Shown here: positions 1 to 28,351 of the stretch, piece after piece
Layout: each line of letters starts with the position of its first letter
How positions within the stretch are numbered: the stretch's first letter is position 1
Source: Candidatus Saccharimonadota bacterium
Lineage (GTDB): Bacteria; Patescibacteriota; Saccharimonadia; Saccharimonadales; UBA4665
Direction: 5' to 3'
Assembly: GCA_963716945.1 (NCBI GenBank)
Contig: OY970322.1
Coordinates: forward strand, 570,001-602,000
DNA length: 32,000 bases
Notes under the pieces: generated by a model
Told to the model about the DNA's origin: nothing
The model's database searches: none
What the model saw: the letters and a program-made list of their open reading frames with translations, nothing else
Made by a program: the position numbers and the translations under genes

Positions 1-457
1 CGATTGATTCCAGCCGGACGCCTTCGCGCAGGTACTTGTCGGCGGCCACGTAAGCGATACCGGATTTCGTGCTGCCTTGCGCGTCCTTGCCGGCTTCGCG
101 CAAACTATCGAGGATAATGTGGTGCGGCAGAACCAGGTGGGCGGCATCGCTGATAAGCAGGTTTTTGGGCGACACGGACAAGCCGCCGCTGCGGATGGTA
201 GCCATCTCTTCGATGAGTTTCGGCGGGTCCAGGTAAACGCCGCTGCCGATGATGTTCAGCTTGCCGGGATAAGCTACGCCTGATGGTATCTGGTGCAAAG
301 CCAGCGGTTCGTCGCCGATTTTGGGTATGACGGTATGGCCGGCGTTGGCACCGCCGTTGGCACGGGCGATAATGGCATAATCACCCGCCACGAGATCGAC
401 GAAACGGCCTTTGCCCTCGTCGCCCCTCTGCAACCCAACAATCACATCTAAAGGCAT
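1..457 (-). CDS. purA: Adenylosuccinate synthetase, N-terminal ~152 codons (the rest runs off the left edge of the window)
   Basis: My own reverse-strand translation from the ATG at 457-455 gives MPLDVIVGLQRGDEGKGRFVDLVAGDYAIIARANGGANAGHTV... It carries the GDEGKG P-loop and the GG-x-NAGHT motif typical of PurA. It is absent from the ORF track because there is no stop codon inside the window. Confidence 0.85.
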   Translation of the reverse strand, partial: MPLDVIVGLQRGDEGKGRFVDLVAGDYAIIARANGGANAGHTVIPKIGDEPLALHQIPSGVAYPGKLNIIGSGVYLDPPKLIEEMATIRSGGLSVSPKNLLISDAAHLVLPHHIILDSLREAGKDAQGSTKSGIAYVAADKYLREGVRLESI

Positions 458-497
458 ACCTGATAGAGCATACCGTTCCAAGCTTGAATAATCAAGG

Positions 498-1472
498 TTA
501 GATCTGGTTTTGGCCTTCGAAAATAGCCGAAAGCGAGTTGCCGCTGGCCACGGCGTCGATGGCGTCGGCTACCAGCTGGGCTACCGACAGGACTTCGATT
601 TTGTCGGTGATACCTTTGCTGTCGACCGGCACGGTATTGGTAACGATTACCCTCTTGAACGCCGAAGCTTCGATGCGTTCCAAGGCTGTGCCGGATAGGA
701 TGCCGTGCGTAGCCAGGCCGTAAACTGATTTGGCGCCTTTGTCCTTAAGCATGTCGGCCGCCGCGCAGAACGTGCCGGCCGTGTCAATCATGTCGTCGAC
801 GATAATGCAGACCCGGCCGCGGACGTTGCCGATCAGCTGTTTGGCTTCGACGCTGTTGTGCTTGGTCGTGGAACGGGTTTTGTGGATGATGGCCATGTCG
901 GCGCCGAACGAGCTGCTGTAGCGCTCGGTCATCTTGACGCGGCCGGCGTCCGGTGACACGAAGACGATGTCGTTGCCGAAGTTGTCTTTGATGTACTTCT
1001 TGAATAACGGCATGGCGATCAAATGGTCGAACGGCCCGTCGAAGAAGCCCTGCGTCTGTCCGGAATGCAGGTCGACGCTCATGATGCGGTCGGCGCCGGC
1101 GGCCGATAACATGTCTACAAGTAAACGGGCCCCGATTGGTTCGCGGCCCGCTGATTTACGATCTTGCCTAGCATAGCTAAGCAAGGGGCACACGGCCGTA
1201 ATGCTGCGGGCGGACGCCCGCTTGGCGGCATCAATCATTAAAAGCTGCTCGAAAATCGATTCGTGGACCCGCGTACCATGGCTCTGAATAATAAAAACGT
1301 CATTGCCGCGCAATGACTCGTTGAAGCGAATGCTGACTTCGCCGTTAGCGAAGTTGCTCACCTTAATATTGCTTAATTTCATGCCCATGCAGGCGGCGAT
1401 TTCGGCGGCCAGTTCGGGATGGGCGCGACCACTAAGCAGCTGCAAGCGATGAGTGGTCCCGACACGATTCAT
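498..1472 (-). CDS. prs: Ribose-phosphate pyrophosphokinase (PRPP synthetase)
   Basis: 324-aa ORF with DLHSGQTQGFF, VSPDAGRVKMTERY and the PRPP-binding loop CIIVDDMIDTAGT. It lies 40 bp upstream of purA on the same strand. Confidence 0.93.
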   Translation of the reverse strand: MNRVGTTHRLQLLSGRAHPELAAEIAACMGMKLSNIKVSNFANGEVSIRFNESLRGNDVFIIQSHGTRVHESIFEQLLMIDAAKRASARSITAVCPLLSYARQDRKSAGREPIGARLLVDMLSAAGADRIMSVDLHSGQTQGFFDGPFDHLIAMPLFKKYIKDNFGNDIVFVSPDAGRVKMTERYSSSFGADMAIIHKTRSTTKHNSVEAKQLIGNVRGRVCIIVDDMIDTAGTFCAAADMLKDKGAKSVYGLATHGILSGTALERIEASAFKRVIVTNTVPVDSKGITDKIEVLSVAQLVADAIDAVASGNSLSAIFEGQNQI

Positions 1473-1628
1473 ATTTCCAGTGTAGCTAGCGTGTTCGTCC
1501 TGCGCAAGCCCGGATTATTAAAAACTTGACTTTACACCGATAAAAGCTTAAACTTTTGTGTAATTGAGATGATAATTTTGCAAAAATGATTCATTTCAGA
1601 GCATGTAAACTTAATTTTTGAGGCAAAT

Positions 1629-3266
1629 ATGGCACTAAAGAGCAAAAATGAGTATGTCAAAGTAGCTTCCCACGAGGGCCGTAAAGGCGAAGTCAAGAAG
1701 GTAGTTCTCCTCTATTCCGGCGGTTTGGACACTTCGACTATGGTCAAATGGATCCAGGAAGAATACAAAGCCGAAGTCATTGCCCTGACGATCGACATCG
1801 GCCAGCAGACCGACGACCTGGAAGCCATTCGCCAGAAGGCGCTCGACCTCGGTGCCGCCAAAGCCATAGTCATCGACGCCCGCGAAGAGTTCGCCGAAGA
1901 GTACATCGCCCGCGGCATTAAGGCCAACGGCATGTACCAGGGCCGCTACTACTTGTCGACGCCGCTCGGCCGGCCGCTGCTGGCTAAGTGGGCCGTCAAG
2001 ATTGCCGCCCAGGAAGGCGCCGACGCCATCGCCCACGGCGCCACCGGCAAAGGCAACGACCAGATCCGCATGGAGGGCTCTGCCTTGGCGCTTAACCCCG
2101 ATATCAAGATCATCGCCCCGGTCCGCGAATGGGGCATGGGCCGCGACGAACAGCTGGAGTATTGCCGCCAGCACGGCATTCCGGTCAAGCAAACCAAGGA
2201 CAAACCCTATTCTTATGACGACAACATGTGGGGCGTGACCGGCGAAGGCGGCGAGATCGAAAACCCGGCCCTGGTACCGCCGCTCGAAAAGATTCTCCAG
2301 GTTTGCAAGACTCCCGAAAAGGCCAAGAACACTCCGGAGTACATCAAGCTGGAATTCGAAAAGGGCCTGCCGGTAGCCGTCGACAAGAAGCAAATGGGTC
2401 TGGTCGAGATCATCGGCCAGCTCAACAAACGCGCCGCCCAGCATGCTATCGGTATCGTCCACTTGCTCGAAGACCGGGTTATCGGCCTCAAGGTCCGCGG
2501 CATTTACGAGGCCCCGGCCGCCGAAACCATCATCACTGCCCACAAGGCCTTGGAGCGCTACACCTCGACCCGGCTGGAGAACGAGTTTAAGAGCATTGTC
2601 GATGAGAAATGGGCTTACTTATGTTACGGCGCCCTGTGGTTCGAGCCGCTGATGGACGACCTCAACGCCTACGAGGACAAAGTTAATGAAAAGATAACAG
2701 GCACCGTTACCGTCAAGCTGTTCAAGGGCCATGTCGAAGCCGTCGCCGTCGAGACGCCTAACACCATATTCGACGAGAAGCTAGCGACTTTCATGGAAGA
2801 CGGCAGCCACTTCAATCAGAACGCCTCGGCCGGCTTCATCGAGCACTACACTTTGCAAATGAAACTGGCCCAGCGCCGCAAGCATACCGCCTTGCTGGCT
2901 ATCGGCGGCCGCGACAAGAAGCTTAAGCTGCTGCCGCAGCTTAAGTCCCTCAACAGTATGGGGTACCAGCTGTATGCGACCTACAAGACCCATAAGTTCC
3001 TCAAGAGCCACGGTATCGAAGCCATCCTGGTCAATAAGATCAGCTCGCCCGAACTGAAGCCCAACCTGGCCGACCTGCTCGATGCCAACCGTTTCGATAT
3101 CATCATCAATATCCCGACCGGCACCGACCGCGAAGAGAGCAAGGCCAAAGAAAAGACCGACGGCCAGACCATCCGCGAAAAGGCCGTTAAGGCCAACGTC
3201 ACCCTGATTACTACCGTTTCGGTCGCCAAAGAAGTCGTTTCCAAGCTCGAGAAGGCCCGGGTGTAG
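1629..3266 (+). CDS. argG: Argininosuccinate synthase-like enzyme (aa ~1-410) fused to a C-terminal MGS-like (CarB allosteric-domain-like) module (aa ~415-545)
   Basis: N-terminal PP-loop YSGGLDTS, GATGKGNDQIRME and YSYDDNMWG are ArgG hallmarks. The tail HTALLAIGGRDKK...GYQLYATYKTHKFLKSHGIEAILVNK...FDIIINIPTG...IREKAVKANVTLITT aligns by eye to the C-terminal allosteric (MGS-like) domain of carbamoyl-phosphate synthetase large subunit. GAGG lies 6 nt upstream of the ATG. Confidence 0.85.
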   Translation: MALKSKNEYVKVASHEGRKGEVKKVVLLYSGGLDTSTMVKWIQEEYKAEVIALTIDIGQQTDDLEAIRQKALDLGAAKAIVIDAREEFAEEYIARGIKANGMYQGRYYLSTPLGRPLLAKWAVKIAAQEGADAIAHGATGKGNDQIRMEGSALALNPDIKIIAPVREWGMGRDEQLEYCRQHGIPVKQTKDKPYSYDDNMWGVTGEGGEIENPALVPPLEKILQVCKTPEKAKNTPEYIKLEFEKGLPVAVDKKQMGLVEIIGQLNKRAAQHAIGIVHLLEDRVIGLKVRGIYEAPAAETIITAHKALERYTSTRLENEFKSIVDEKWAYLCYGALWFEPLMDDLNAYEDKVNEKITGTVTVKLFKGHVEAVAVETPNTIFDEKLATFMEDGSHFNQNASAGFIEHYTLQMKLAQRRKHTALLAIGGRDKKLKLLPQLKSLNSMGYQLYATYKTHKFLKSHGIEAILVNKISSPELKPNLADLLDANRFDIIINIPTGTDREESKAKEKTDGQTIREKAVKANVTLITTVSVAKEVVSKLEKARV

Positions 3267-3291
3267 GTGCTATGCCCGAGGTGGAGCCTAA

Positions 3292-4269
3292 ATGACAAAG
3301 CCGAGTTATTTTGACCCCAAGCAAGCCCTTTTAGAAAAAATACGGCAACGCGGCGGCTGGGTTAACGCCCACAGCCACATTGATCGGGCGTACATACTGA
3401 CTGAAGAGAATTTCCAGCTTTCCAACGCCTCGTTACAGCAGAAATGGGCTTTGCCCGACGAGTTCAAAGCCAAGGCCAGCGTTGACGACATTTACGGCAA
3501 TATGACCTTGGCTGTCGAAACCATGTGCGCCCAGGGCGTACGGGCCATGGCCTCGTTCATCGACGTTGATCCGGTTATCGAGGACAAGGCCATCAAAGCG
3601 GCGCGAAAAGTCCGTGATAACTTCAAGGGCCAAATCGAAATACGCTTCGTCAACCAGGTCGTCAAAGGCGTAATCGACCCCGAAGCCCGTAAATGGTTTG
3701 AAATCGGTGCCGAGTTCGCCGACATTATCGGCGGTCTGCCCGAAAAGGACGAAGGCCGCGAGGCCGAACACCTCGATATATTGTTTGAGACGGCTAAGAA
3801 GTATGGCGGCAAACCGCTGCATGTCCATGTCGACCAGTACGGTCTGCCTTCGCAGCGTGATACCGAGCTGCTGGCCAAAAAGACAATCGAGCACGGCTAC
3901 CAAGGCAAGGTCGCGGCCGTGCACGGCATTTCCATCGCTGCCCAGACTAAGGACTACCGCGAAAAGTTGTACAAGTTGATGAACGAAGCCGGACTGCTGG
4001 TCGTTACTTGTCCGCTGGCCTACATCGCCAGCCACCGCAGCGAAGAATTGGCGCCGCTGCATAACTCCATCGCGCCGGTTGAAGAAATGATCCAAGCCGG
4101 ATTGACGGTCGGCATGGGCACCGACAACATCCACGACATATATATGCCGTTCGCCGATGGCGACATGTGGTCGGAAATGCGGGTGCTGCTGGAGGCCTGC
4201 TATATCCGGGACCTCGATGTTTTGGCTGACATCGCGACCGTTAACGGCCTGAAAACCTTATTTTTGTAG
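3292..4269 (+). CDS. Metal-dependent amidohydrolase, cytosine-deaminase (CodA)-like family. Substrate unknown.
   Basis: HxH metal motif (VNAHSHIDRAY), HVHVDQ, and the C-terminal GMGTDNIHDIYMPFADGDMW, which resembles the CodA-type GxD(D/N)..D.W.P.G..D motif. At 325 aa it is shorter than E. coli CodA. RBS GGTGGAG lies upstream. Confidence 0.65.
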   Translation: MTKPSYFDPKQALLEKIRQRGGWVNAHSHIDRAYILTEENFQLSNASLQQKWALPDEFKAKASVDDIYGNMTLAVETMCAQGVRAMASFIDVDPVIEDKAIKAARKVRDNFKGQIEIRFVNQVVKGVIDPEARKWFEIGAEFADIIGGLPEKDEGREAEHLDILFETAKKYGGKPLHVHVDQYGLPSQRDTELLAKKTIEHGYQGKVAAVHGISIAAQTKDYREKLYKLMNEAGLLVVTCPLAYIASHRSEELAPLHNSIAPVEEMIQAGLTVGMGTDNIHDIYMPFADGDMWSEMRVLLEACYIRDLDVLADIATVNGLKTLFL

Positions 4270-4303
4270 CTACCTATTCCGGCGTCGGTGCTAGACTAAA
4301 ATT

Positions 4304-4885
4304 ATGAAATACAAGGTTGGCGTTTACGGTTCCGCGGCCGGGGATTACGAGGCCTTTTTACCGATTGCGGCGAAAGTCGGTCAGGCCCTCGCCGAACATG
4401 CCGATTCGGTAATCGTGATAACCGGAGCCTGTCCCGGCCTGCCGTACGCCGCGGCCAAGACGGCCGCCGCTCAAGGGGTTGAGGTATGGGGCTTTTCGTC
4501 ATCACCCAGTGAGGCCGTCCAACGCCAGGAATACGCCGCCGACGATCTGAGCATTTACGCCAAGCTGGTCTACGTGCCCCAAGACTTCCCGTTTGCGGAT
4601 AGTGACCAGGCCTGCAAAAAGTACCGCAACGTTATTTCGACGGCCAATTGCGACGCCGCTATCATCATGTCGGGGCGTTGGGGCAGTTTGAACGAATTCA
4701 CAGATCTTATTGATATGGGCAAAACTGTCGGCGTCTTGACCGGCAGCGGCGGCATCGCCGACGAGCTGCCCGCGCTAAGCCGGAAAATATCAAAAGCCGG
4801 CCAAGGCGAGTTATTGTTTGATGGTGATGCCGGCCGGCTGGTCGAAAAGCTGCTTAGCTCTTTGAAGCTTTCAGCGCCAACTTGA
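4304..4885 (+). CDS. LOG/TIGR00725-like Rossmann-fold protein (possible nucleotide N-glycosidase, SLOG superfamily)
   Basis: The 193-aa ORF has the pattern VGVYGSAAG...VITGACPGLPYAAAKTAAAQG..VWGF...IIMSGRWGSLNEF...TGSGGIADEL, which resembles LOG-family GGxG...PGGxGTxxE architecture in divergent form. The assignment is by pattern only. Confidence 0.45.
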   Translation: MKYKVGVYGSAAGDYEAFLPIAAKVGQALAEHADSVIVITGACPGLPYAAAKTAAAQGVEVWGFSSSPSEAVQRQEYAADDLSIYAKLVYVPQDFPFADSDQACKKYRNVISTANCDAAIIMSGRWGSLNEFTDLIDMGKTVGVLTGSGGIADELPALSRKISKAGQGELLFDGDAGRLVEKLLSSLKLSAPT

Positions 4886-5966
4886 TCTCGGCGGCCAGGT
4901 TGGGGTTGTACATGGCGCCGGTAGCTGACAAAACTACGTCGGCCCCGGCCTGGCGGTACTCCATGAAATCCCGGGCGTTGAGGACGCCGCCGATACTGAA
5001 AATTTCATAATGCAGCCTCTCCCGCTCACGGAGCTCGAACAGGCGCCGGGTCATATCCAGGCCGATCTCTTTTATGGCGTGGCCGGAGACGCCGGCCTTG
5101 AGCCTGCCCTTGCCGGGCAGGGCCTGCTGGCCGGCATCGTCTACTACCGGTGCCGCGTAAGTATTGATGGCGCTGATGGCCTCGACATAAGGGTCGACGG
5201 CGATGAACATCTCCTCGAACAGGCCTTGCACGGCTTGCGGGAAATAGCCGAATTTGGCGATGACGGGCGTTTCGCCGACGACCTCTTTGACCAGCTTGCA
5301 GACCTGAAGTACGGCCTCGGGGTCGTAGCATAAAACGCCTTCGTTGGAGACGTTCGGGCATGACAGGTTGATTTCGATTGCCCGGGCGCCGCTGCCCTTG
5401 GCCAGCAAAGCCGTTTTGGCGAAGTCTTCGTAATAGTCATCGGTCGTGAAGCCCGGCTGGATAGTGCCGACAATGCTGTTAATCAACAGCCGCCCCCGCT
5501 TCTCCAGACTATAGCTGTTAGCCTTGCGGCCATCCGGCATCCAGTAGCTGGGGTCGATCGAATTATTGCCGAAAGAATTGGCTATAGTCAGGGTGCTATA
5601 GTCGCTGTCAGACGTAGTCGTGCGGCTGGGCAAGGCTTCAAAATCGTGGTGCGGCAAAAGCTTGCCGGGCACGATGTGCACGACGTTGGCGAAGGGCTGG
5701 GGGGCGAAGTGCACGCTGCGCCGGGTTTTGGTGGTTACGATGTCGTAGCCGTTATCGAACATGGTCTTGATGTAGCGGCTGTCGGCGCCTGTCGGGCACG
5801 AGGCCGAACCGAAGGGCGAGTTGACTTTGAAACCGAGGGCCTGGTAATCGCCGGCTTTGGCGGGGGCCTTTAGGGTGGCTTTGAATTTTTTAGACGGGCC
5901 GGCTTCGAGATTGTCGTTATAAGTCTTGGATATGTCGTAAATTGGCTGATAAACCGTCTTTCCCAT
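4854..5966 (-). CDS. pyrD: Dihydroorotate dehydrogenase-like flavoenzyme (class 1-like, Cys active-site loop)
   Basis: EINLSCPNV active-site loop, NSPFGSAS, VTTKT, ANSFGNNS, SIGGV and LSATGA segments are collinear with class 1 DHODH. The start is set at internal ATG 5966 (MGKTVYQ...), because the track start at 6113 would overlap pyrF by 120-138 nt depending on its start. Confidence 0.7.
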   Translation of the reverse strand: MGKTVYQPIYDISKTYNDNLEAGPSKKFKATLKAPAKAGDYQALGFKVNSPFGSASCPTGADSRYIKTMFDNGYDIVTTKTRRSVHFAPQPFANVVHIVPGKLLPHHDFEALPSRTTTSDSDYSTLTIANSFGNNSIDPSYWMPDGRKANSYSLEKRGRLLINSIVGTIQPGFTTDDYYEDFAKTALLAKGSGARAIEINLSCPNVSNEGVLCYDPEAVLQVCKLVKEVVGETPVIAKFGYFPQAVQGLFEEMFIAVDPYVEAISAINTYAAPVVDDAGQQALPGKGRLKAGVSGHAIKEIGLDMTRRLFELRERERLHYEIFSIGGVLNARDFMEYRQAGADVVLSATGAMYNPNLAAEIKLALKASKS

Positions 5967-24271: not shown

Positions 24272-24500
24272 GCCTCCTTGTCAGCTAATCAATACAGACA
24301 GTATCTTATAATTCGTTACACAGGACAAGCCGCATGCTGCCGAAACGCCCGGTTGTCTAGCCCAAGGCTTTTGACAGGCGGTCAAACCTAGCCCCTCGGT
24401 CATAATGAAACCCTCGGCTTGCATAGTTATCCACATAAGCTATTTGACACAAAAACTATTTGGGTGGATGATGAAAATGTCAATTAAGGAGGGTGTCTCT

Positions 24501-25059: not shown

Positions 25060-25091
25060 CGCAGGCAGTCGGATTAGGCTGCCTGCGTTTG
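25060..25091. terminator. Hairpin between convergent genes (candidate bidirectional terminator)
   Basis: CGCAGGCAG (25060-25068) pairs with CTGCCTGCG (25079-25087), giving a 9-bp perfect stem and a 10-nt loop. It is followed by TTTG on the + strand and by a T-rich run on the - strand. It overlaps the last codons of the GNAT-like gene. Confidence 0.4.
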
Positions 25092-25667
25092 CATGTCAAA
25101 GCGGCTGTTTAGCTCATAGGGCTGTTCCAGTTCGGCCACCCCGACCCGGCTAAGGTCGATAACCACACCGAAACCTATCTTGCGATGCTCAAGGTCCGCT
25201 TCAAACTGCCCTGACCGTTCCAGCAGCGCGATTGCCTCGTCGGCCGATATGGGCAGTTCGGCTTCGTGGCCGTCGATCGGGTCGGCATTCGTAAAACTCA
25301 GGCTATCTTCGCCGAATACCCGGCGCAGCGCCATGACGGTGTACTGGGAGTTGGCCTGGCCGCTGAGGCTTTCGATCTGGTTTTGCTTGGCTACGTAGCC
25401 CAGAGCGCTGATCAACCGCTTGCCGATGCCGCCTTCGCGGATGGACGGGTCAACCCTTAGGCCTAAAAATACCATTTCCCGCGTATTGCCGTCGGCATCA
25501 TCCCGGCCCATGGCGGCGTTGAAAGTGCAGCCATATGGCAGCTTAAGCCCCAAACGGACCTTGCCTATCGAGGTATCGTCTGACCATGAAGCTTCTACCG
25601 GACAATTCTGAAGATCGTTCAGTATAAAGCGGCGCTCGGCTTCCCGGCGTTTGGCCAAACTGTTCAT
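25074..25667 (-). CDS. GNAT-like N-acetyltransferase (tentative)
   Basis: 197-aa ORF with LRVDPSIREGGIGKRLISAL, which resembles GNAT motif A (R/Q-x-x-G-x-G/A). I recognise no other motif. Confidence 0.45.
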   Translation of the reverse strand: MNSLAKRREAERRFILNDLQNCPVEASWSDDTSIGKVRLGLKLPYGCTFNAAMGRDDADGNTREMVFLGLRVDPSIREGGIGKRLISALGYVAKQNQIESLSGQANSQYTVMALRRVFGEDSLSFTNADPIDGHEAELPISADEAIALLERSGQFEADLEHRKIGFGVVIDLSRVGVAELEQPYELNSRFDMQTQAA

Positions 25668-25705: not shown

Positions 25706-25713
25706 GTAGCTCA
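25706..25713. repeat. Left copy of the 8-bp direct repeat GTAGCTCA (putative target-site duplication)
   Basis: Abuts the left TIR. An identical 8-mer abuts the right TIR at 28344-28351. Confidence 0.75.
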
Positions 25714-25739
25714 GGCATGTCCCCCCAAAGCACAAGTAG
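25714..25739. repeat. Left terminal inverted repeat
   Basis: GGCATGTCCCCCCAAAGCACAAGTAG. It is the inverted match to 28318-28343 (23/26). Confidence 0.85.
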
Positions 25740-25800
25740 ACCTTTCAGGTGGGTAGATAGAGATCACAGTTATTTCTAAATATTATGAGATAATAGGGGG

Positions 25801-26301
25801 ATGGAGCCGAGACGACCTATAGGTAATTATGCTTTCATAGATTCTCAGAATCTATATATGAGTCTTGAGGAGTGCGGATGGCGGCTAGACTGGCGAAAGT
25901 TCAGAACGTATCTTAGAGAAAAGTATGCAGTGACTGATGCTTACGTATTCATAGGTTATATTTCAGCTCAAGAACCATTATATAAATTCTTACAAGAAGC
26001 TGGATTTACACTTATTTTTAAGGAGACCCAGAAGAGAGTTGATGGTTCATCTAAAGGTAATGTTGATGCCGAATTAGTTCTGAACGCTATGATAGAATAC
26101 CCGAATTATGATAAAGCGGTAATCATAACTGGTGATGGGGACTTCGCTTGCCTTATCACTTATTTAAAGAAACAAGATAAGTTACAAATGCTTCTTGTTC
26201 CCAATGAAGCTAAATATTCTGCACTACTCAAAAAGGCAGCAGCCAGCCAGTTGGCTTCAATTAGCAGTCTTCAAAAGAGGCTAGAATACATCCCTAAATG
26301 A
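25801..26301 (+). CDS. NYN-domain (LabA-like, PIN-related) putative ribonuclease
   Basis: NYAFIDSQNLY, GNVDAELV and VIITGDGDFACLI place the conserved Asp residues as in the NYN/LabA fold. 166 aa. Confidence 0.8.
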   Translation: MEPRRPIGNYAFIDSQNLYMSLEECGWRLDWRKFRTYLREKYAVTDAYVFIGYISAQEPLYKFLQEAGFTLIFKETQKRVDGSSKGNVDAELVLNAMIEYPNYDKAVIITGDGDFACLITYLKKQDKLQMLLVPNEAKYSALLKKAAASQLASISSLQKRLEYIPK

Positions 26302-26307
26302 AAAGCA

Positions 26308-26342
26308 CCCCTTAAGGACGGAACCTTAAGGGGGTCTTTTCG
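26308..26342. terminator. Rho-independent terminator after the NYN gene. It probably acts in both directions.
   Basis: CCCCTTAAGG (26308-26317) pairs with CCTTAAGGGG (26324-26333), giving a perfect 10-bp stem and a 6-nt loop. GTCTTTTCG follows on the + strand, and an A-run precedes the hairpin, which reads as a T-run on the - strand. Confidence 0.7.
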
Positions 26343-26460
26343 TGGTAATTACATCTCTAATTATACACATCACAAAGAAATAAGTCAATAGTTTTGTCAA
26401 GTTTAAGCATAAAAGATGTGAATGATCACAGATTCTTTGTAACTTCACTTTAGGCCTCAT
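26326..26460 (-). CDS. Candidate small ORF (44 aa, below the track cutoff). Hypothetical.
   Basis: My own translation gives MRPKVKLQRICDHSHLLCLNLTKLLTYFFVMCIIRDVITTKRPP. It is preceded by AAGAGGAGG, although the spacing to the ATG is short. Its stop sits inside the 26308-26333 hairpin. Coding status is unproven. Confidence 0.2.
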   Translation of the reverse strand: MRPKVKLQRICDHSHLLCLNLTKLLTYFFVMCIIRDVITTKRPP

Positions 26461-26502
26461 AGCCTCCTCTTAATAACTATTTAATAATCCCCCAAAGAGC
26501 CG

Positions 26503-26526
26503 TATCACAGGGGTTTGTGATATAAT
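26503..26526 (+). promoter_or_regulatory. Palindromic operator-like site overlapping an extended -10 element
   Basis: TATCACA-GGGGTT-TGTGATA (26503-26522) has 7-bp perfect arms. It is immediately fused to TGATATAAT, an extended -10 (TGn + TATAAT at 26521-26526). No good -35 element is present. Confidence 0.35.
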
Positions 26527-26555
26527 CGCTTTGTTCTAGTTTTGGCGGTTTTTTT

Positions 26556-26647
26556 ATTTACATTCGAAATGGGCAACCTATTTCGAACACAGTGAATGTA
26601 AATTTACTGCTGGAACTAGAACAACCTAGAAATGGGTTGTCCTTTTT
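26556..26647 (+). promoter_or_regulatory. Structured 5' leader: a long imperfect hairpin plus a terminator-like hairpin just before the RBS of the 26664 gene
   Basis: ATTTACATTC (26556-26565) pairs with GAATGTAAAT (26594-26603), with an inner GAAAT/ATTTC stem. ACAACC (26621-26626) pairs with GGTTGT (26635-26640) and is followed by CCTTTTT. The duplicated CAACCTA and GAAATGGG segments allow alternative pairing. Confidence 0.3.
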
Positions 26648-26663
26648 ATTTAAGGGAGGTTTT

Positions 26664-27098
26664 ATGAAGAAGGTCCTAATCCTAGCGGCAGTAATTATCA
26701 TCGGTTTGACAGGCGGAGTGATGGCTCTTACGTCTTCAAAGCCTAAACCAAAGGCTCAGAACCTCATTACTGTAAGCAAACCGATACAAGCTAAAGCGCC
26801 CGTCAGCCAACCTACGGTTACTGCTACGCCTGGCGCTCAAGTCGCTACCGCTTCTACTGCGCCCGATCCTGCTTGCCTTAGTCAAAAAGCTTCACAGTTA
26901 GTCTCTATCCAAACCCAAGAAACCCAAGTTCAGGCGCAAATAGACCAGATCACTGCAAGAATACGGGGCGAAATAGTCGGAGAAGCTGTAACACCGGCAG
27001 TTATGGCAATTGAAATCACAGATCAAACAGCTTCTCTTCAAAGCCAGTTAACCGCTCTAAAAGCTCAGTACGCTTCTGTTCAAGCAAAGGTTTGTTAG
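26664..27098 (+). CDS. Single-pass membrane/secreted protein with a Q-rich coiled coil. Hypothetical.
   Basis: The start is set at ATG 26664, with AAGGGAGG at 26652-26659. Features are MKKVLILAAVIIIGLTGGVMAL (signal/anchor), a P/T/A-rich linker, and Q-rich heptad-like segments (QTQETQVQAQIDQITARI, LQSQLTALKAQYASVQAK). Confidence 0.6.
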   Translation: MKKVLILAAVIIIGLTGGVMALTSSKPKPKAQNLITVSKPIQAKAPVSQPTVTATPGAQVATASTAPDPACLSQKASQLVSIQTQETQVQAQIDQITARIRGEIVGEAVTPAVMAIEITDQTASLQSQLTALKAQYASVQAKVC

Positions 27099-27439
27099 TG
27101 AAGATAAAAGTAGAAGAGGCGTTAGCCGTCATACTCCTTGTGCTCCTATGCTCCATAGGTTCTTACTATTTCGGCCATCACATAGGCTTCTCTACAGGCT
27201 ATACGACAGGTGAAGATAGAGGCTCTGCACTACAAGTAGCGCACGACAAACCTGTTCTTGCGTCAGCTTACAGCGCTAATACGAAGCTTACAGATCAATA
27301 TAACCAGCTATCGGATAACTACAATAACCTAAGAAACTCAGTTCTTAAATATATAAGCGTGGCTCAGTACCAGGCTAGTAGGCCAATTAGTTGTACCAGC
27401 AATACCTTACCCAATACGACTTTTACTAATTGTTTTTAA
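27092..27439 (+). CDS. Single-pass membrane protein with an N/Q-rich helical segment. Hypothetical.
   Basis: TTG 27092 or GTG 27098 start, overlapping the upstream stop (coupled). TM segment ALAVILLVLLCSIGSYYF, then TKLTDQYNQLSDNYNNLRNSVLKY, and a C-terminal Cys pair. Confidence 0.5.
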   Translation: MLVKIKVEEALAVILLVLLCSIGSYYFGHHIGFSTGYTTGEDRGSALQVAHDKPVLASAYSANTKLTDQYNQLSDNYNNLRNSVLKYISVAQYQASRPISCTSNTLPNTTFTNCF

Positions 27440-27525
27440 TTTCTTTAGGCTATAGTAGTTTCATGACTAAAACTAAATTTGATAAAGCTTTGGATAAGGT
27501 ATTCGGGCCTAAACGGAAGAAGTAG

Positions 27526-27831
27526 TTACTGTTTGTCTTTAATTTCTTGGAGAAGTTGTGTTTGCTTATTGGTTTGGTCTACTTGGCTCGACACGAAAGC
27601 AGCGAAAGCGATAATAACTCCAGCTAGGGTTATAAGAGCAATAATAAAACCTAATGTAGTTATTGCTTGAATTGTCGAGATTTGAGAATCCTGTCTTTCT
27701 ATTCTCTTTATGGCATCCTCTGCTTGGTTTTGAGTTTGTTTTATTTGAGTTGCAAGAGCAGATAGGACTTGTTGACTCTCAGAATCAATACTATTTTCAT
27801 CGGCTGCTTGAAATATGTTATCGTCACTCAT
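27526..27831 (-). CDS. Tail-region single-pass membrane protein with a Q-rich coiled coil. Hypothetical.
   Basis: 101 aa. It has an acidic N-terminus, QIKQTQNQAEDAIKRIERQDSQISTIQ, and the TM segment LGFIIALITLAGVIIAFAAFV. ATGA overlap with the upstream 27828-28238 gene. Confidence 0.55.
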   Translation of the reverse strand: MSDDNIFQAADENSIDSESQQVLSALATQIKQTQNQAEDAIKRIERQDSQISTIQAITTLGFIIALITLAGVIIAFAAFVSSQVDQTNKQTQLLQEIKDKQ

Positions 27832-28238
27832 ACTTTTCTAACTAAAAAATAAAACTTGTTATCATCCTGAAGACGCTTACCATTATCATAAAAACGCAGG
27901 TAGTAACGGCCAGGTTTTTTAAATTCAACTAGCATAAACCTCGCAGCAAAATCTGCATCTCCCTCAGTAAATTCACCTATAAGCTTAGAAGTCGCAAATA
28001 CGGTTTTGTCCGGAGCAATTATCCTAACTTCAGCTTGTGACTTGCCAGCAGTAACATTATTAATACTGCCCACCACAAAAAAAGACTGAAATGTACTTGT
28101 TTGATTTTCAAATATGCTAACAGCATTAAAGATGTCTATATACGACCATTTACCGGTTGCGGCATCACGAATGGCATTCTCGGTAGGTATCAGATATCTT
28201 ATGGTAGTTTGAGCGGACATAGGTACTTTATGAAACAC
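27828..28238 (-). CDS. Small soluble beta-rich protein. Hypothetical.
   Basis: 136-aa ORF (GTG 28238, or ATG 18 nt downstream). No TM segment and no motif I can name. Translationally coupled to 27526-27831. Confidence 0.55.
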   Translation of the reverse strand: MFHKVPMSAQTTIRYLIPTENAIRDAATGKWSYIDIFNAVSIFENQTSTFQSFFVVGSINNVTAGKSQAEVRIIAPDKTVFATSKLIGEFTEGDADFAARFMLVEFKKPGRYYLRFYDNGKRLQDDNKFYFLVRKV

Positions 28239-28317
28239 CTCTCTGGTTAGTGTATCAATTGTACCGATATTTTTCTAAAACTGCACGACTTATCCATTCA
28301 AATGGATAAGTTTAGGG

Positions 28318-28343
28318 CTACTTGTGCTTTGGGGGGAAGGGCC
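28318..28343. repeat. Right terminal inverted repeat
   Basis: CTACTTGTGCTTTGGGGGGAAGGGCC. It is the inverted match to 25714-25739. Confidence 0.85.
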
Positions 28344-28351
28344 GTAGCTCA
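28344..28351. repeat. Right copy of the 8-bp direct repeat GTAGCTCA (putative target-site duplication)
   Basis: Abuts the right TIR and is identical to 25706-25713. Confidence 0.75.

Follow-up and report, generated by a model that had tools for sequence, protein, structure and literature searches.

A transposase-less mobile insertion cassette with a five-gene cargo and IS1595-like termini in a Saccharimonadales genome

Mobile insertion cassettes (MICs) have been known since 1999. Their definition asks for imperfect inverted repeats on both sides, a target duplication, no transposase gene and at least one passenger gene that brings its own expression signals (PMC3913671), and they form a listed category of elements (PMC3129680). 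Here we analyze an element of 2630 bp with five open reading frames (ORFs), located at 25714-28343 of a 32,000-nucleotide stretch of a Candidatus Saccharimonadota genome (order Saccharimonadales; contig OY970322.1, positions 570,001 to 602,000), to which we refer as the window. The element is a MIC: it has terminal inverted repeats (TIRs), a target duplication and passenger genes, and it has no transposase. An earlier reading made from the letters alone (the sequence-only reading) had regarded this architecture as unusual, a view that does not hold, as MICs are an established ISfinder category with these features (PMC3913671; PMC3129680). Inverted repeats, a duplication, passengers and the lack of a transposase are shared with MIC231 of Bacillus cereus, which is mobilized in trans by the IS231A transposase, and with the qnrD and qnrS2 mic elements. 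MIC231, for which trans-mobilization has been demonstrated experimentally, is of the IS4/IS231 lineage, whereas the window element has IS1595-like ends, a Saccharimonadales host and a five-gene cargo.

A second point of reference is the IS1595 family of insertion sequences (IS), members of which are "usually flanked by 8-bp TSDs" (target-site duplications; PMC8101967). As summarized in PMC3129680, which cites Siguier, Gagnevin and Chandler 2009, the family includes "transporter IS" with passenger genes, in the ISNwi1+ and ISNha5 groups. The window element resembles these in its 8-bp duplication, in termini starting with GG and in passengers unrelated to transposition, and differs from them in lacking a transposase and in termini that have diverged at positions 4-10 and 14-19. 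Among the loci fetched for comparison (denoted by L and a number), four (L003, L093, L094 and L158) are of the transporter-IS kind, in which a zinc-ribbon and DDE_Tnp_IS1595 transposase is accompanied by cargo. MITEs (miniature transposable elements with inverted repeats) are likewise non-autonomous, have TIRs and a duplication and need a transposase in trans, but they are short (below about 600 bp) and non-coding, unlike the 2630-bp window element with its five ORFs. Transposons of the Tn3 family have inverted repeats of ~38 bp and 5-bp duplications. Tn3-family MICs with effector genes in Xanthomonas (PMC4337579) also hold cargo within transposon-type inverted repeats without a transposase; the window element is set apart from them by its 8-bp duplication and IS1595-like termini. 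The searchable literature yielded nothing linking NYN genes, one of which is carried here, to Patescibacteria, or IS1595 to Saccharibacteria.

The boundaries of the element are given by four short features:
25706-25713, left copy of the 8-bp target-site duplication, GTAGCTCA, directly abutting the left TIR and the same as 28344-28351
25714-25739, forward strand, left TIR, GGCATGTCCCCCCAAAGCACAAGTAG
28318-28343, reverse strand, right TIR, reverse complement GGCCCTTCCCCCCAAAGCACAAGTAG
28344-28351, right copy of the 8-bp target-site duplication, GTAGCTCA, exact and abutting the right TIR

The two TIRs, which follow the pattern GGC...TCCCCCCAAAGCACAAGTAG, match at 23/26 positions and are perfect over the inner 20 nt. 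This inner 20-mer has two sites only within the 32-kb window, and with 3 mismatches tolerated a match arose in 0/100 shuffles, while exact agreement of an 8-mer at fixed positions has a chance of 4^-8 (~1.5e-5). The interior also departs strongly from its surroundings in composition. Its guanine plus cytosine (GC) content is 0.397 as against 0.583 in the remaining window (z = -9.1), the lowest value in any 2630-bp window outside it is 0.548, and its tetranucleotide distance reaches z = 19; GC at third codon positions (GC3) is 0.25-0.41 in the ORFs of the element and 0.68-0.78 in the flanking genes, and the GC break is sharp at both ends. Scans with Pfam, NCBIfam, PHROGs and PADLOC identified no transposase, integrase or recombinase among the five ORFs, and tblastn detected no IS1595 transposase in the window (best E = 2.5). 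The inverted repeats, the exact duplication abutting both of them, the AT-rich interior and the missing transposase had all been claimed in the sequence-only reading, and each was borne out when computed or searched for. We consider it very probable that the element is a cassette that was moved by DDE-type transposition and that lacks a transposase of its own.

The element lies between a polyprenyl synthase gene, the relatives of which are from Saccharimonadales and other Patescibacteria, and a GNAT-like gene. Excising it together with one repeat copy leaves a spacer of 70 bp, from the stop codon of the synthase (28376) to the start of the GNAT-like gene (25667), as had been proposed earlier, and the reconstructed empty site is TTGACAAGTAGTAGCTCATAAGGCTGC. 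A relative of the host, represented by locus L012 (PurH 78% and DUF308 82% identical), has the gene order synthase, terminator, DUF308; the element and the GNAT-like gene are both missing there, and the absence of the element agrees with its being an insert. The same cargo genes standing at this locus in relatives without the repeats, a situation that the sequence-only reading had named as contrary to its view, were not seen, and L012 has none of these genes there. The ends are bare 26-nt TIRs with no IS copy on either side, unlike those of a composite transposon. As to islands and prophages, no recombinase was found in the scans and no tRNA gene in the window, and the repeats are inverted and accompanied by a short duplication. 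Two further candidates were set aside: for two fused units with an internal end near 26487 (CCCCCAAAG), the best interior matches were 14-16/26, inside the shuffle range of 13-17, and a 15-nt repeat, TAGCTCATAGGGCTG, at 25110 and 28345 compares with ~0.3 such pairs expected by chance in 4 kb by our own estimate.

The interior contains the following features:
25801-26301, forward strand, gene for an NYN-domain (LabA-like, PIN-fold) nuclease of 166 aa (Pfam NYN, E = 1e-18; PADLOC NYN model, E = 4e-6)
26308-26333, bidirectional terminator hairpin 3' of the NYN gene, part of a ~600-bp NYN module at 25799-26400
26532-26623, forward strand, stable 92-nt hairpin upstream of o144 (fold of 26515-26666, -53.6 kcal/mol, z = -7.8)
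26664-27098, forward strand, o144, small protein with a hydrophobic segment at its N terminus and a C-terminal half that is coiled-coil-like
27092-27439, forward strand, o115, small protein with an N-terminal membrane segment
27526-27831, reverse strand, o101, small protein with a C-terminal membrane segment
27828-28220, reverse strand, o136, divergent DUF6941 member with an all-beta sandwich

Cargo is shared with units that carry IS1595-type transposases: the NYN gene with L003, o115 with L094 and o101 with L093. The closest NYN relative on a usable contig is that of L003, with 83% amino acid identity to the window protein when the full ORF is read, and it lies inside a transposase-bearing unit of 3181 bp (1860-5040) with 36-nt inverted ends and a flanking 9-bp direct repeat, CCTTAATTG. 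The transposase of this unit belongs to the IS1595 family (Pfam Zn_ribbon_IS1595 and DDE_Tnp_IS1595; NCBIfam E = 1.3e-51), and its relatives are abundant and found in similar cargo-carrying units. The small protein o115 is 29% identical over 104 aa (E = 1.5e-6) to the product of an ORF (3461-3802) directly upstream of the transposase inside an L094 unit (2812-5383, small ORF plus transposase). Similarly, o101 is 33% identical (E = 1.6e-7) to the product of an ORF ending at 1468 of L093, again directly upstream of a transposase, and 68% identical to that of 1303-1527 of L003, beside the L003 unit. The L093 unit (62-3736) has perfect 27-nt ends and holds, besides the transposase, two small ORFs and a KilA-N protein, and L158 has clade-type ends from 1780 and a transposase of the same two-domain type with cargo. 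We regard these as members of a likely group, previously undescribed, of units of the IS1595 family that carry cargo and occur in Saccharimonadales and other Patescibacteria. The family trait of IS1595, a zinc-ribbon and DDE_Tnp_IS1595 transposase, is absent from the element and from the window; this makes the element a candidate for a non-autonomous derivative of the family, and not itself an IS1595 insertion sequence.

Some side features of these units were recorded. In L003 a tRNA-Ser gene with anticodon ACT (3992-4067, ARAGORN) is located within the cargo unit, with the transposase on one side and a small ORF on the other, and a tRNA gene is unusual as IS cargo. Candidate ends lying closer to the L003 transposase were rejected as unconvincing, with complementarity of only 8-11 nt. 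The transposases of L093, L094 and L158 (P0124, P0130 and P0183) occur on recurrent 35-49-kb contigs dense in small unannotated ORFs, P0183 on 24 of them. These contigs may be phage or plasmid genomes of bacteria of the candidate phyla radiation (CPR), and possible vehicles of cassettes.

Units with the same kind of ends and no transposase were found as well. L008 127-1098 (972 bp) has 26-nt ends, GGCGACTATCCCCTGACAGCAAGTAG, holds an NYN gene and a 58-aa ORF, and is flanked by CAATAGCG and CAATAACG, which match at 7/8 positions over 8 bp. L090 38-766 (729 bp) holds an NYN gene only, in flanking DNA of 60% GC, and neither the L008 nor the L090 contig has a DDE transposase. The ORF adjoining the L090 unit is presumably ruvA-like, as we judge its translation. 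The third such unit, L094 5482-7601 (2120 bp), has perfect 24-nt TIRs, GGCACCTATATACTTTAGTCACGG, and five small ORFs, lies 98 bp from the transposase-bearing unit of the same locus and has no transposase. One of the five has a homologue among the passengers of the L093 unit (E = 1e-17), and this two-unit arrangement recurs in several samples (L095-L098).

These sister units bear on a rival account, in which the element arrived as an autonomous IS1595-type cargo unit like that of L003, lost its transposase in place by deletion or module replacement and was never mobilized in trans, being a stranded fossil. DNA homology to L003 ends at window position 26400 (L003 2839), the L003 transposase gene begins 86 bp farther on (stop codon at 2925), and the equivalent place in the window is a 260-bp non-coding, hairpin-rich stretch; a fossil also agrees with the failure to find a partner transposase or a second copy. 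No transposase remnant is detectable there, however, and the ORFs, both TIRs and the duplication are intact. Transposase-less sisters, moreover, recur elsewhere (L008, L090 and L094 5482-7601), and because they recur in other genomes they suggest that cassettes without a transposase do move. We therefore hold loss in place to be possible but unlikely, and continue to read the element as a cassette that was most likely mobilized in trans.

The ends of all these units, including those of the window element, align without gaps to GGC·A·TAT·CCC···CAAGTA and form one graded family. In-register identity is 16/26 between the window and L008, 18/26 between L008 and the IS end of L094, and 19/26 between L090 and the same IS end; judged from these alignments, L008 and L090 bridge the window termini to IS1595-type termini. 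Compared directly, the window ends agree in register with the ends of the L093 and L094 transposase units at 16-17/28 positions (shuffle p ~0.001). We also scored the window with a leave-window-out matrix, built from the termini of the other units (the IS1595 clade and the NYN-only units) and set against a background of 2 Mb of unrelated Patescibacteria loci. The left TIR obtained 6.4 bits (background frequency 6.7e-5) and the right TIR 7.5 bits (4.1e-5). At the level of sequence, the similarity of the window termini to those of the IS1595 units appears significant, and moderate rather than close. The 12-nt tip motif is confined to unit ends in loci that were not chosen by that pattern; no sign was thus seen of the TIR being the common intergenic repeat that the sequence-only reading had considered as an objection. 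When the clade terminus consensus was searched for in viral contigs, the longer pattern had 0 matches and a pattern with 15 specified bases had 57 single matches, which we attribute to chance because none has a transposase nearby.

The shared cargo, the similar termini and a duplication of the length typical of the family together link the element to IS1595-type units, and we judge its assignment to this clade in particular to be reasonably probable. The sequence-only reading had instead offered ISL3, IS66 and IS256, which are not the best candidates, as cargo sharing and terminus similarity point to IS1595, another family that makes 8-bp duplications. A MIC moved by some other 8-bp-duplicating DDE family (for example ISL3, IS6, IS256 or IS66) seems decidedly unlikely, even if the window termini are only moderately similar to those of the IS1595 clade and GGCCCTTCC, at the right tip, may be similar to tips of the ISL3 type in ISfinder, for example GGCTCTTC. 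Against such a source, 3/5 cargo genes have homologues in or beside IS1595-transposase units, the terminus similarity is significant and bridged by intermediates, and transposases of other families were not encountered in any of the related loci.

Several observations weigh against mobilization by an IS1595-type transposase. An 8-bp duplication is not unique to IS1595, and the window termini are identical to the ends of transposase-bearing units at only 12-17/28 positions, so that a transposase of that clade might be unable to recognize them. The 120 top relatives of the L003 transposase include none from the source contig (1,099,440 bp). A target duplication was not seen at four sister units, those of L093 and L090 and both of L094. 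The exact empty site was not found: L012 also lacks the GNAT-like gene and is therefore not a clean before-and-after pair, the contig of L009, the closest relative (synthase 82% identical), stops inside the synthase, and L010 and L011 are not syntenic. The search for an empty site that the sequence-only reading had recommended thus gave a relative without the element, L012, and not the site itself. Neither the GTDB species genomes nor IMG/VR contained an exact 20-mer or 19-mer copy of the TIR, and the JGI metagenomes contained 2. We rejected these two as chance matches, one lying inside a 310-aa ORF and the other being solitary without a partner end. A Logan contig (ERR11523672) contains the whole element and has 13.3 kb that are identical to the window, and the unbroken 14.8-kb length of this contig suggests that the element is single-copy in its sample, because such assemblies break at long repeats. 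The sibling copies and the autonomous partner for which the sequence-only reading had proposed to look were accordingly not recovered: the three DNA collections (genome, viral and metagenome) gave no second copy, and no transposase with the same TIR was found. Of its account of a non-autonomous multigene element mobilized in trans, the element and its cargo stand; a transposase acting in trans is probable, and the cognate one was not found.

We propose the following sequence of events for the insertion. An IS1595-type transposase, with a zinc ribbon and a DDE domain and supplied in trans, would have bound both 26-bp termini, cut the 70-bp spacer that separates the synthase from the GNAT-like gene with a stagger of 8 bp and joined the element ends there, and gap repair would then have produced the GTAGCTCA duplication. 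The DNA would have come from within the same bacterial group, from a lineage of lower GC, the recipient being a high-GC Saccharimonadales genome. Its cargo, which comprises an apparently active NYN nuclease, three small proteins of membrane or coiled-coil type and a beta-sandwich protein of the DUF6941 family, would have been drawn from a pool of genes shuffled among sister units.

The mobile DNA of Saccharibacteria and other ultra-small bacteria of the CPR has been poorly described. Taken as a single window, the locus presents an element of an ordinary kind in a group of hosts that has been little studied, and it is at the same time a clean, intact case in which a transposase-less cassette delivered genes horizontally into a reduced genome of 1.1 Mb. 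The locus leads to a family of units of the IS1595 type, among which genes for small membrane proteins and an NYN nuclease are exchanged from a common pool. If this family is as widespread as the ~8000 homologues of the NYN protein suggest, genes in these bacteria, possibly including defense or toxin genes, could have it as one of their major routes of flux.

The most interesting thread is the promiscuity of settings of the NYN module. Homologues of the protein (~60% identity) are mainly from Patescibacteria, and many lie on contigs of about 1 kb. Over 20 homologues the acidic residues D89, D112 and D114 show no variation and D14 and N17 almost none, and the enzyme is probably active. The module keeps 74% DNA identity in L003 and L089 over 25799-26400, and its terminator hairpin recurs in L003, L089, L008 and L090. 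As a unit of ORF and terminator (~600-700 bp) it occurs in widely varying settings, including TIR units, an atp operon, a tandem and plain chromosome. In L159 2467-3241, and alike in L160-L168, it sits between atpA and atpG of an F-type ATP-synthase operon with no inverted ends, flanked by partial copies of the 5' end of atpG (3086-3140 versus 3187-3241 at 76%, and a 21-nt piece at 2477-2497). These partial duplicates suggest either insertion with restoration of the target or spread by recombination. L170 and L171 carry tandem NYN genes (1775-3026; 167 and 173 aa) with a period of ~698 bp and 77-88% identity, and L169 has a single copy and a left neighbor that differs from theirs. In L089 (1159-3069) the homologue is 83% identical and adjoins a gene for a CHAP-domain (endolysin-like) protein and small ORFs; no inverted ends are detectable around it, and what it shares with the window and L003 is the ~600-bp module only. 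More broadly, no TIRs flank the NYN genes of L004-L007, L089 or L159-L176, and those of L004-L007 and L089 stand in ordinary chromosomal contexts.

Two stronger roles for the nuclease can be weighed against this distribution. In one, the element is autonomous, the PIN-fold NYN protein is its mobility enzyme (a non-canonical transposase or homing-type enzyme) and the TIRs are its recognition sites. NYN genes do lie in TIR-bounded units without a DDE transposase at three independent places, and in two of these, L008 and L090, the unit is IS-sized with NYN as the sole sizeable ORF. The conserved catalytic residues, the ~700-bp module in mid-operon and as a tandem pair, and the many homologues on ~1-kb contigs are also in keeping with it. 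We nevertheless find it very improbable. The 8-bp duplication implies staggered strand transfer, a DDE hallmark, and we know of no PIN-fold transposase. The same terminus family also bounds DDE-transposase units without NYN (L093 and L094) and the L094 unit that has neither, and many NYN genes have no flanking TIRs. The other role, which we think quite improbable, is that of a selfish mobile module in Patescibacteria rather than passive cargo, suggested because NYN recurs within IS1595-type termini, in the ATP-synthase operon and in tandem pairs. In its strongest form the protein would spread itself (homing-like or as a non-canonical transposase) or would be a maintenance or defense factor that aids the cassettes.

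Four of the five ORFs (NYN, o115, o101 and o136) are backed by homologues or by a family, while o144 had no family match above threshold and no homologue among the fetched loci. Its stop codon overlaps the start of o115 and from this overlap the two genes look translationally coupled; on the other strand the start of o101 overlaps the stop of o136 (ATGA). Between the NYN terminator and o144 there is a non-coding gap of ~260 bp, with a terminator-like stem and T-run at 26621-26640 just ahead of the ribosome-binding site of o144. The 92-nt hairpin in this gap has no Rfam match and is not present in related loci; it may be a leader or attenuator, or a site acting at the DNA level.

The o136 protein is uncalled in the public annotation and had no match in a word-indexed search, and an exhaustive search retrieved 104 cluster representatives at E <= 1e-3 with lengths of ~128-130 aa (best 48% identity), in which 27/41 aligned members match Pfam DUF6941. 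Its AlphaFold model is an all-beta sandwich (predicted local distance difference test score of 97), and the nearest folds are those of uncharacterized phage proteins (template-modeling (TM) score 0.78) and of the Wzt carbohydrate-binding domain (TM 0.62). This kinship with phage proteins, the small membrane proteins in the cargo and the CHAP-domain gene next to the L089 homologue could be taken to mean that no transposition occurred and that recombination brought in the region as a piece of phage or island DNA, its repeats being coincidental or structural. We rate this as extremely improbable, as recombination explains neither 26-nt TIRs with a chance expectation of zero nor an exact abutting 8-bp duplication. 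The element moreover has no integrase and no att-type direct repeats, and no DNA similarity to any of 50,697 phage or 72,556 plasmid records.

Two observations concern the genes around the insertion. The GNAT-like gene (25074-25667) has a host-like composition (GC3 0.68), is absent from the syntenic L012 locus and encodes a protein to which none among 15 billion proteins is related at >= 90% identity. The insertion parts it from the upstream synthase, and its expression may have been altered because only 46 bp of native upstream sequence remain. In L012, the spacer between DUF308 and PurH contains a MITE-like inverted repeat of ~103 bp (5072-5174) with 25-nt arms that are 96% complementary around a 51-nt spacer. 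It is missing from the equivalent window spacer (24272-24404) and has no visible target duplication. Its ends (GGCAACTCTACCGCCATGCCAAGCAG; 16.8 bits) belong to the same terminus family, which has thus been active in the lineage of the host.

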